From Candidatus Parcubacteria bacterium (GTDB taxonomy: Bacteria; Patescibacteriota; Minisyncoccia; Sungbacterales; SURF-37), in assembly GCA_003599755.1 (NCBI GenBank), contig QZJO01000013.1:27729-91728 (forward strand): a DNA stretch of 64,000 nucleotides, read 5' to 3'. The notes under the pieces are model-generated. The model saw nothing but the letters and a program-made list of their open reading frames with translations. It was not told where the DNA came from and ran no database searches. This document shows positions 57,811 through 57,923 of the stretch, one piece after another. Numbering within the stretch: the stretch's first letter is position 1; the number at the start of each line of letters is the position of its first letter. Made by a program: the position numbers and the translations under genes.

Positions 57811-57923
57811 CCCCATCAGAGACCGCGGTCGCGGTATACAAATCATGCAGATAATGGCAGCATCGATTACCAGTAATATTCAACGGGCAGGGAGCGGTAC
57901 GACCGCGACCTGTCTCTAACGGG
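57811..57923. mobile_element. 113-bp MITE-like palindromic element, copy 2, inserted exactly at the rpmC-stop/rpsQ-start overlap with 5-bp direct repeat ATGAG
   Basis: Left flank …ATCATGAG| (contains the rpmC stop TGA); right flank |ATGAGAACG (rpsQ start). Termini CCCCATCAGAGACCGCGGTCGCGG … GACCGCGACCTGTCTCTAACGGG. The central part is homologous to copy 1. Confidence 0.7.

Follow-up and report, generated by a model that had tools for sequence, protein, structure and literature searches.

Miniature inverted-repeat elements at start codons of Candidatus Parcubacteria and other CPR bacteria, and a small GIY-YIG nuclease as their putative mobilising enzyme

Bacterial MITEs (miniature transposable elements with inverted repeats), such as Correia/NEMIS of Neisseria, RUP, Nezha and MITEAba12, are short non-coding sequences with terminal inverted repeats (TIRs) and a target duplication, which occur in many copies, fold into mRNA hairpins and descend from an autonomous element that shares their ends. 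Here, we describe a family that is alike in these respects, represented by three 113-bp copies in a stretch of 64,000 nucleotides from a Candidatus Parcubacteria bacterium of the Sungbacterales (contig QZJO01000013.1, positions 27,729 to 91,728), hereafter called the window. However, two features set it apart from the described MITEs: the partner with the same ends is a 275-bp element that encodes a GIY-YIG protein and nothing else, rather than a DDE insertion sequence (IS), and the copies lie in a single orientation at start codons or −35 boxes, where the interrupted signal is rebuilt.

The closest relatives of the encoded protein, both in sequence and in fold, are members of the UPF0213/YhbQ group (BH0048, PDB 1ZG2; EF2693, PDB 1YWL), with which it shares a one-domain architecture of ∼95 amino acids and the catalytic residues. 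This group is viewed as vertically inherited housekeeping, whereas the genes considered here are bounded by TIRs and a duplication, occupy hundreds of unrelated sites and have MITE derivatives. The survey of the superfamily that took this view, published in 2006 (Dunin-Horkawicz et al., PMC1564403), placed the stand-alone proteins in a prokaryotic Slx1 family and left open whether other members are molecular parasites. The GIY-YIG core also superposes on eukaryotic Slx1 of the Slx1-Slx4 complex and on plant HIGLE, with a TM score of ∼0.6 and a root-mean-square deviation (rmsd) of 2-3 Å. These enzymes prefer branched DNA, flaps and Holliday junctions, which hints, by analogy, at how a TIR stem or cruciform could be recognised; unlike them, the present protein, known from sequence and a model, has no RING or zinc-finger domain and no Slx4 partner. 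The homing endonucleases I-TevI, I-BmoI and T4 Seg are comparable as selfish genes that have a GIY-YIG nuclease as their only product and are often wedged between genes, but they are characterised by a long specific site, a C-terminal DNA-binding domain, the lack of TIRs and duplication, and homologous flanks, and none of these is seen here.

Finally, several mobile elements use safe havens in the genome: IIC group II introns insert behind terminators, IS1111/IS110 elements in repetitive extragenic palindromic (REP) sequences and Tn7 at attTn7. The elements described here also insert where the host is unharmed; in their case, the start codon or −35 box itself serves as the haven and is duplicated so that element and host both keep one. 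A search of the full-text literature, outside which many subscription papers lie, retrieved no description of TIR-bounded GIY-YIG elements. The family is apparently undescribed and falls outside every transposon class known to us, and we have moderate confidence in its newness.

Short elements and the start codons that they occupy

All three copies in the window lie on the forward strand. Copy 1 (32663..32775; T32663 to A32776 in the refined model) has the TIRs TCCCGTTAGAGAC...GTCTCTAACGGG. Its left repeat ATGGA (32658..32662), which is the old start codon and contains the 4-bp duplication TGGA (32659-32662), follows the stop TAG of the HisRS gene (32653-32655), and its right end abuts the ATG (32776-32778) of a HIT-family gene (32776..33132; PF01230, E 5e-23), with the right repeat ATGGA at 32776-32780. 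Copy 2 (57811..57923) has an intact right end and a degraded left end (CCCCATCAGAGAC). Its left repeat ATGAG (57806-57810) overlaps the TGA stop of rpmC, the gene for L29 (57807-57809), and the ATG of rpsQ (S17; 57924..58217), together with the right repeat ATGAG (57924-57928), was rebuilt by the insertion. Copy 3 (60054..60166) carries the TIR variant GAAAC/GTTTC, with compensatory changes in both arms, and a local right-subterminal hairpin (60136-60149); it lies behind the TAA stop of rpsH, the gene for S8 (60037-60039), has the left repeat ATGAG at 60049-60053, and abuts the ATG of rplF (L6; 60167..60712), where the right repeat ATGAG occupies 60167-60171.

An earlier note on this DNA had reported the three copies, with their TIRs and mutual homology, and had taken the right-hand repeats for the start codons of HIT, rpsQ and rplF. 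The sequence itself agrees. A scan for the left terminus CCCGTTAGAGACCGCGGTCGC gave three plus-strand matches in the window at ≤2 mismatches and none in 100 shuffled sequences, and the alignment of the copies has a mean column identity of 75%, with copies 1 and 2 nearest each other, sharing a common interior, and copy 3 more diverged. Pfam assigns the downstream proteins to HIT, S17 and L6, and the flanking pentamers are exact in all three cases (ATGGA/ATGGA, ATGAG/ATGAG and ATGAG/ATGAG). In agreement with the hairpin that the note had placed directly 5' of the initiation codon, copies 1, 2 and 3 are predicted to fold into long hairpins, with energies of −52.8, −38.0 and −34.8 kcal/mol and z-scores of −5.7, −3.0 and −5.2, respectively; in the mRNA context, the A of the AUG is part of the stem for copies 1 and 3.

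The window contains no transposase, as the note had stated, and tblastn with GIY-YIG queries did not find a GIY-YIG gene in it either; the window copies are thus non-autonomous. Their short frames showed no similarity. Rfam gave no family at gathering scores across the whole window and none at E ≤ 1 in 57700-60300. Scans for σ70 promoters and terminators revealed none inside the three copies, save the small subterminal hairpin of copy 3; the suggestion of an element-borne promoter was abandoned. The best named relatives of the S17 protein from the window are from Candidatus Sungbacteria (71-75% identity). The public Joint Genome Institute (JGI) call for this rpsQ gene (57924-58217; P0121) has 85 amino acids and starts at an internal Met, versus 97 amino acids from the ATG that abuts the hairpin.

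The family was then delimited with two scans. For MITEs, two termini 72-102 nt apart were sought in one genome per species, which gave at least 120 loci; for full-length elements, metagenomes were searched for these termini at a spacing of 236-266 nt (TIR pairs 260-290 bp apart), which gave at least 120 matches. At least 240 loci thus carry the termini of the window copies, mostly in the Candidate Phyla Radiation (CPR, Patescibacteria). Most of the listed MITE loci come from many CPR lineages, among them Saccharibacteria, several groups of Parcubacteria, Berkelbacteria and Doudnabacteria, and a few from metagenome-assembled genomes labelled Omnitrophota, Elusimicrobiota or Planctomycetota. The family therefore spans many CPR lineages without lineage specificity. 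Neither terminus pattern, MITE or full-length, had a match in 2.9 million viral contigs.

The family terminus is CCCGTTAGAGAC, with left junctions of the type ATGAA-T-CCCGTTAGAGAC. Across 57 copies, the 13-bp TIR is 99.5% paired, and its positions 1 and 11 show compensatory changes: the two arms change together from T-A to C-G in 5 copies and from G-C to A-T in 17, with one broken pair each. Such covariation fits a pairing or a symmetric recognition of the ends. The right-subterminal hairpin is present only in a subset of the MITEs (58% of cells paired). Lengths of the listed MITEs modulo 3 are roughly even, and no coding constraint on length was found. We also noted shorter palindromes of 28-72 bp with the ends CCCGTTAG...CTAACGGG (L023 6731-6803, L058 435-483, L108 4716-4764 and L031 2900-2982), some of them at ATGAAT/ATGAA or TTGAC/GTTGAC sites, which indicates that the family grades down to bare hairpins. 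In six loci (L001, L148, L150, L172, L186 and L201), the flanks are TTTAC and GTAAA, inverted rather than direct, suggesting a subfamily with longer inverted repeats and the true duplication further out.

To characterise the sites, 104 short elements were oriented solely by an internal asymmetry, the CT bulge before GTCTCTAACGGG; the flanks are not part of the search pattern, and the site statistics are therefore unbiased. An ATG, GTG or TTG directly follows the right end in 88 of the 104, and is found at the left end in only 8. Of these 88 start codons, 76 open a reading frame of at least 50 codons. The genes behind them are unrelated: 84 downstream proteins match 87 Pfam families, including EF-Tu-type GTPases, S2, S7, S20, L9, TIM and DNA ligase. 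A co-directional open reading frame (ORF) ends ≤20 nt upstream at half of the sites, and for 13 of the 88 the site is an ATGA stop/start overlap of the kind seen at rpmC/rpsQ in the window.

An exact 4-bp direct repeat flanks 73 of the 119 elements with usable flanks (TGAA in 46, TGGA in 11, TGAG in 8, and others), so that the flanking repeats seen in the window recur at other copies. Directly within the repeat, the outermost bases of the element are T...A in 95 of the 119 and C...G in 21, the 3' terminal A pairing with the 5' terminal T. Some sites read GTGAA-T[element]ATGAA and others ATGAA-C[element]GTGAA, which shows that the duplication is 4 bp long and that the rebuilt start codon takes its first base from the 3' terminus of the element. 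The 5-bp duplication proposed in the earlier note thus holds as far as the exact pentamers are concerned, but family-wide the duplicated part is TGNN and the fifth base, A, belongs to the element. The start codon is rebuilt from this terminal A (or G) and the duplicated TG. The logo of the reconstructed target has A at 89% before the duplicated bases, followed by T 100, G 97, R 93 and R 98; no Shine-Dalgarno signal was found upstream of the reconstructed targets. In summary, the elements are overwhelmingly inserted at A|TGRR of start codons, in the orientation of the gene, with a 4-bp duplication that is mostly TGAA, TGGA or TGAG. In four loci (L018, L076, L077 and L081), a second copy has entered the rebuilt site in tandem.

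The ancestral state of the copy 2 site can be seen in two relatives, L242 and L243. In both, rpmC and rpsQ share an ATGA overlap with a single ATGAG and no element ('...cccattATGAGgacgcttcagggg' in L242 and '...cctatcATGAGaacattccagggg' in L243), compared with '...cgatcATGAG[113 bp]ATGAGaacgctccagggc' in the window, whose reconstructed empty site aligns across the junction to L242. A single ATGAG is what insertion with target duplication predicts, and the ancestral overlap supposed in the earlier note is thereby recovered, as is the position of the left repeat over the L29 stop. The rpsH-rplF spacers of L242 and L243 are also without an element. An all-against-all search of reconstructed empty sites yielded the window-L242 pair only.

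The note had also held that insertions are rare in the S10/spc operon. This is contradicted by Sungbacteria-like relatives, in which other repeat insertions of ∼90-140 bp are found in different spacers of the same ribosomal-protein operon (L241 70-205, 1000-1130 and 1965-2125; L242 2085-2200, 5185-5320 and 6660-6785; L243 5215-5385). These are AT-rich and partly palindromic, have short tandem motifs and lack CCCGTTAG termini. At the rpmC/rpsQ junction of L241 (3485-3515), two ATGAG copies stand 9 nt apart (ATGAGAATACTCCCATGAGAACACTCC), a tandem duplication of ∼14 bp of the start region that could mark the former site of some excised element or could have arisen independently.

Full-length elements and the nuclease that they encode

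While unpaired termini were being checked, a 275-bp element with the same TIRs came up at a start codon in locus L099 (ATGAAT|CCCG...CGGG|ATGAAG). A single ORF of 94 codons fills it from end to end; this ORF uses the left (old) host ATG as its start and, as its stop, a TGA that overlaps the rebuilt ATG. The product, MNPVRDNKTYYVYVLRSTKDKRWYTGLTDDLRKRFKEHNAGHVGWTNGRGPFELIYYEMCKNITDARSREKYFKSGMGKRYLKNRLKRFLSLTG, matches the GIY-YIG family PF01541 at E 1.8e-16. The full-length scan showed that this is the rule, as a GIY-YIG homolog is encoded in 112 of the 120 listed TIR pairs 260-290 bp apart, where the ORF fills the element and specifies 86-94 amino acids. A cognate transposase of the IS630/Tc1-mariner or IS200/IS605 type, for which the earlier note had suggested a search, is consequently not what was found, the autonomous relatives encoding only the small GIY-YIG nuclease. 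A GIY-YIG homolog lies within 8 kb of 6 of the 120 listed MITE loci. No longer element with the same ends was detected among unpaired TIRs 0.14-6 kb apart in 120 loci (∼0.9 Mb), the 275-bp GIY-YIG element being the sole exception.

Full-length elements measure 273-284 bp and are of three types. A-type elements have T..A ends, are 275 bp long and have an ORF that runs from the host ATG to TGA; in this main subfamily, the nuclease ORF borrows the old host ATG and ends at the TGA that overlaps the rebuilt one. A2-type elements (273-276 bp) use an internal ATG. B-type elements (279-284 bp) have C..G ends, and their protein ends in ...KFFFAKGF with a TAA stop inside the right repeat. B-type sites are of three kinds, namely a start codon that becomes GTG, a TATG just 5' of the start codon, and the TTGA of σ70 promoters. 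Several B-type elements and MITEs lie inside a −35 hexamer, which is rebuilt in the right flank much as the start codon is at other sites (L178, L193, L164, L080, L087, L147 and L234), and the promoters hit are well formed (TTGACA, 16-18 nt, TAnAAT). The idea that a −10 box carried by B-type elements completes the old copy of the −35 box was considered and was not convincing.

The relationship between MITEs and full-length elements can be read from their interiors. Some of the MITEs retain ≥20 nt of the full-length coding ends (GACAACnAAA... and ...GCGCTTCCTGTCTC), and others, the window copies among them, are palindromes produced by folding back the right end. One genome has a full-length element (P0091) at the mreD|PBP2 junction, where a 49%-identical relative has a MITE-like copy of ∼129 bp. 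As this is the sole usable relative, an empty site for the full-length P0091 element was not found. Moreover, TIR variants track protein subfamilies, GAGAC occurring with PVRD and GAAAC with PVRN.

Homologs of the protein form at least 3540 clusters, of which the top 120 are almost all 94 amino acids long; 735 clusters at 50% identity have E ≤ 1e-10. Among the top 120, the N-termini M(N/S/D)PVRD and the C-termini RFLSLTG are both encoded by TIR codons, and residue 2 is set by the target duplication. Y13, Y24, G26, R34 and E58 are invariant and H38 is nearly so; these comprise the tyrosines of GIY and YIG, the catalytic Arg and the metal-binding Glu. The closest solved sequences are the UPF0213 proteins 1ZG2 (E 2.4e-9) and 1YWL. 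An AlphaFold model (pLDDT 87.9) has 1ZG2 as its best PDB match, followed by Slx1 and HIGLE at the values given above; I-TevI and UvrC rank lower (TM ∼0.48). By sequence and model, the 94-amino-acid product is a member of the GIY-YIG nuclease superfamily, in its UPF0213/Slx1-like branch, with a predicted nuclease activity. In some cases (P0238, 600 amino acids; P0233, P0246 and P0358), the GIY-YIG module is fused to much longer proteins, which could reflect read-through into the host gene once the stop codon was lost, or could be gene-calling artefacts.

Possible mode of movement and alternative explanations

That the copies form a non-autonomous MITE family at start codons, with the ATG regenerated through the target duplication, was the central claim of the earlier note, and every check that was run upheld it. 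We consider it probable that the 113-bp copies are non-autonomous derivatives of a TIR-bounded miniature family and that the GIY-YIG nuclease mobilises them, the second part being inferred. The protein would act on both full-length elements and MITEs. By analogy with Slx1, it probably recognises the stem or cruciform that arises when the inverted repeats pair, and it would cut with a stagger of 4 nt, both where element and flank meet and at the target, after which host ligation or repair would seal the joints. For expression, the element would borrow the translation-initiation signals of the host, and ribosomes would pass to the host gene by stop/start coupling, at ATGA or TAA-N4-ATG.

The MITEs may retain part of this arrangement. 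In 22 of 72 MITEs, the frame of the old ATG is open to the right end, a share that falls to 13% when the interiors are shuffled and to 2% in the two remaining frames, and the open frame is never fused in frame to the host protein. In the ribosomal operon, both copy 2 (ORF 57806..57919) and copy 3 (ORF 60049..60162) have an open frame of 37 codons on the plus strand, from the old ATG to a TAA within the right TIR, 4 nt 5' of the AUG of rpsQ and rplF, respectively. Translation from the old ATG would melt the MITE hairpin and terminate 4 nt before the real start codon, and would in this way maintain the coupling of rpsQ and rplF with the cistron upstream.

Three other explanations have to be weighed. 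TIRs and a short duplication are the classic signature of DDE enzymes, and the mobilising role of the GIY-YIG protein is deduced from sequence, so the copies could be ordinary MITEs moved in trans by a conventional transposase (a DDE enzyme such as IS1380 or IS630, or IS200/IS605), with the GIY-YIG gene as cargo or a frequent resident. The CC(C) ends and a duplication of 4-5 bp do resemble IS1380. However, the TIRs make up the opening and closing codons of the nuclease gene, their variants co-vary with the protein subfamilies and no longer element was found in the 120 loci, all of which makes such a transposase unlikely; in addition, the 112 listed 260-290 bp pairs that encode a GIY-YIG ORF enclose it alone, with no room for another gene. 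Individual candidates fare no better. IS630/Tc1-mariner is ruled out by duplications of the type TGAA, TGGA or TGAG instead of TA, and an IS200/IS605-derived palindrome-associated transposable element (PATE), which would have neither TIRs nor target duplication and would insert 3' of a fixed tetra- or pentanucleotide, by the presence of TIRs and site-dependent duplications. An IS1380-like DDE element of 1.5-2 kb was rejected on its duplication and end structure and on the missing long TIR pairs, for which only the ∼0.9 Mb of the 120 loci were covered. On balance, we regard a conventional transposase as improbable.

A second explanation keeps the nuclease but changes its role, the GIY-YIG protein being a homing-type endonuclease that cuts ATGRR, with the element copied in by host double-strand-break repair through microhomology. 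All characterised mobile GIY-YIG genes are homing endonucleases, and the preference for a short target motif and a nuclease without known strand-transfer chemistry would both be in accordance with this. Homing, however, needs homologous flanks and leaves no duplication, whereas the elements lie beside unrelated genes and have 4-bp duplications that vary with the site. Conserved TIRs with compensatory changes at two positions point to recognition or pairing of the ends, the single 94-amino-acid domain lacks the DNA-binding extension of I-TevI and is nearer to Slx1 in fold, and an enzyme cutting at 5 bp would be toxic. We therefore find homing unlikely. Finally, the 113-bp sequences might be conserved cis-regulatory RNAs (translational operators or RNase III sites) rather than mobile DNA, as suggested by stable hairpins in which the A of the AUG is paired, by the strict orientation relative to the gene and by the enrichment of an open relay frame. 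This is very improbable and is excluded as the primary explanation, because the downstream proteins belong to at least 87 unrelated gene families, the duplications are site-specific, tandem copies exist and the orthologous site is empty in relatives; the ends shared with the nuclease gene and the absence of an Rfam match in 57700-60300 even at the permissive threshold argue in the same direction. A secondary, exapted effect of the MITEs on translation may nevertheless exist.

Mobilisation by the GIY-YIG nuclease has difficulties of its own. To our knowledge, GIY-YIG nucleases do not catalyse strand transfer, and integration would therefore need help beyond the nuclease. The nearest empty site comes only from relatives that are ∼70% identical in DNA, and the proteins P0091 and P0045, when searched exactly, were each found at one genomic site across many samples, giving no sign of very recent jumps. 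The relay frame of copy 1, at the HIT gene, is stopped at codon 12. Both scans needed intact, exact termini, and their counts are samples rather than a census. Moreover, a preference for ATGRR combined with the loss of intragenic insertions predicts ∼27% of the elements at start codons, compared with 73-85% observed, in a rough count on the same loci, and the strict orientation of the non-coding MITEs is beyond what near-identical TIRs explain. Possible reasons for the orientation are descent in situ from full-length copies, which need the start codon for their expression, an asymmetric subterminal hairpin, which is seen in a subset only, and selection on the relay frame.

With these reservations, we tentatively propose a broader reading of the GIY-YIG elements, which we hold to be possible and somewhat short of probable. 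The family may constitute a new class of DNA transposons and, at ∼275 bp, by far the smallest autonomous mobile element, which would use a Slx1-like GIY-YIG nuclease of 94 amino acids as its transposase. Without expression signals of its own, the element would enter precisely into a start codon (or, in other subfamilies, a −35 box), keep the old copy of the signal and return the rebuilt copy to the host, and its MITEs would persist as translated hairpins in essential operons of CPR bacteria.

Other features of the window and significance of the family

A few further features of the window were recorded. The gene rpmD (L30) is not present between rpsE and rplO (61105-62111), and its absence at this place is typical of CPR bacteria. 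Together with the S17 similarity to Candidatus Sungbacteria, this gene order assigns the window to a CPR (Patescibacteria) genome. Two partial tRNA-like repeats were seen, one at 17770-17825 (73% identical), adjoining tRNA-Leu (17850-17934), and one at 45929-45964 (86% identical), near tRNA-Pro (46085-46156); neither is called as a tRNA by ARAGORN or Rfam. At 1397-1486, ARAGORN predicts a tRNA-Val(tac) of 90 nt for which Rfam has no hit at gathering score, and which may be intron-containing or otherwise odd.

If it is true that a GIY-YIG protein moves these elements, a new catalytic class would stand beside the DDE, DEDD, HUH, serine, tyrosine and Cas1 enzymes, and the smallest size at which a mobile element can be autonomous would drop to below 300 bp. 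A protein of 94 amino acids with defined DNA ends and a 5-bp target would also make an easy biochemical system. For the CPR bacteria, the family accounts for thousands of small proteins that bear the annotation 'GIY-YIG nuclease family protein' or 'excinuclease ABC subunit C', and the elements likely cause a systematic mis-annotation of the starts of the genes behind them, as in the case of rpsQ in the window. The MITEs also provide a natural setting in which to examine how ribosomes deal with a strong hairpin (predicted −35 to −53 kcal/mol) on the initiation codon within a ribosomal-protein operon. The elements would, moreover, represent a new parasitic strategy, in which a start codon or promoter box of the host is taken over and yet duplicated, so that the host gene survives.

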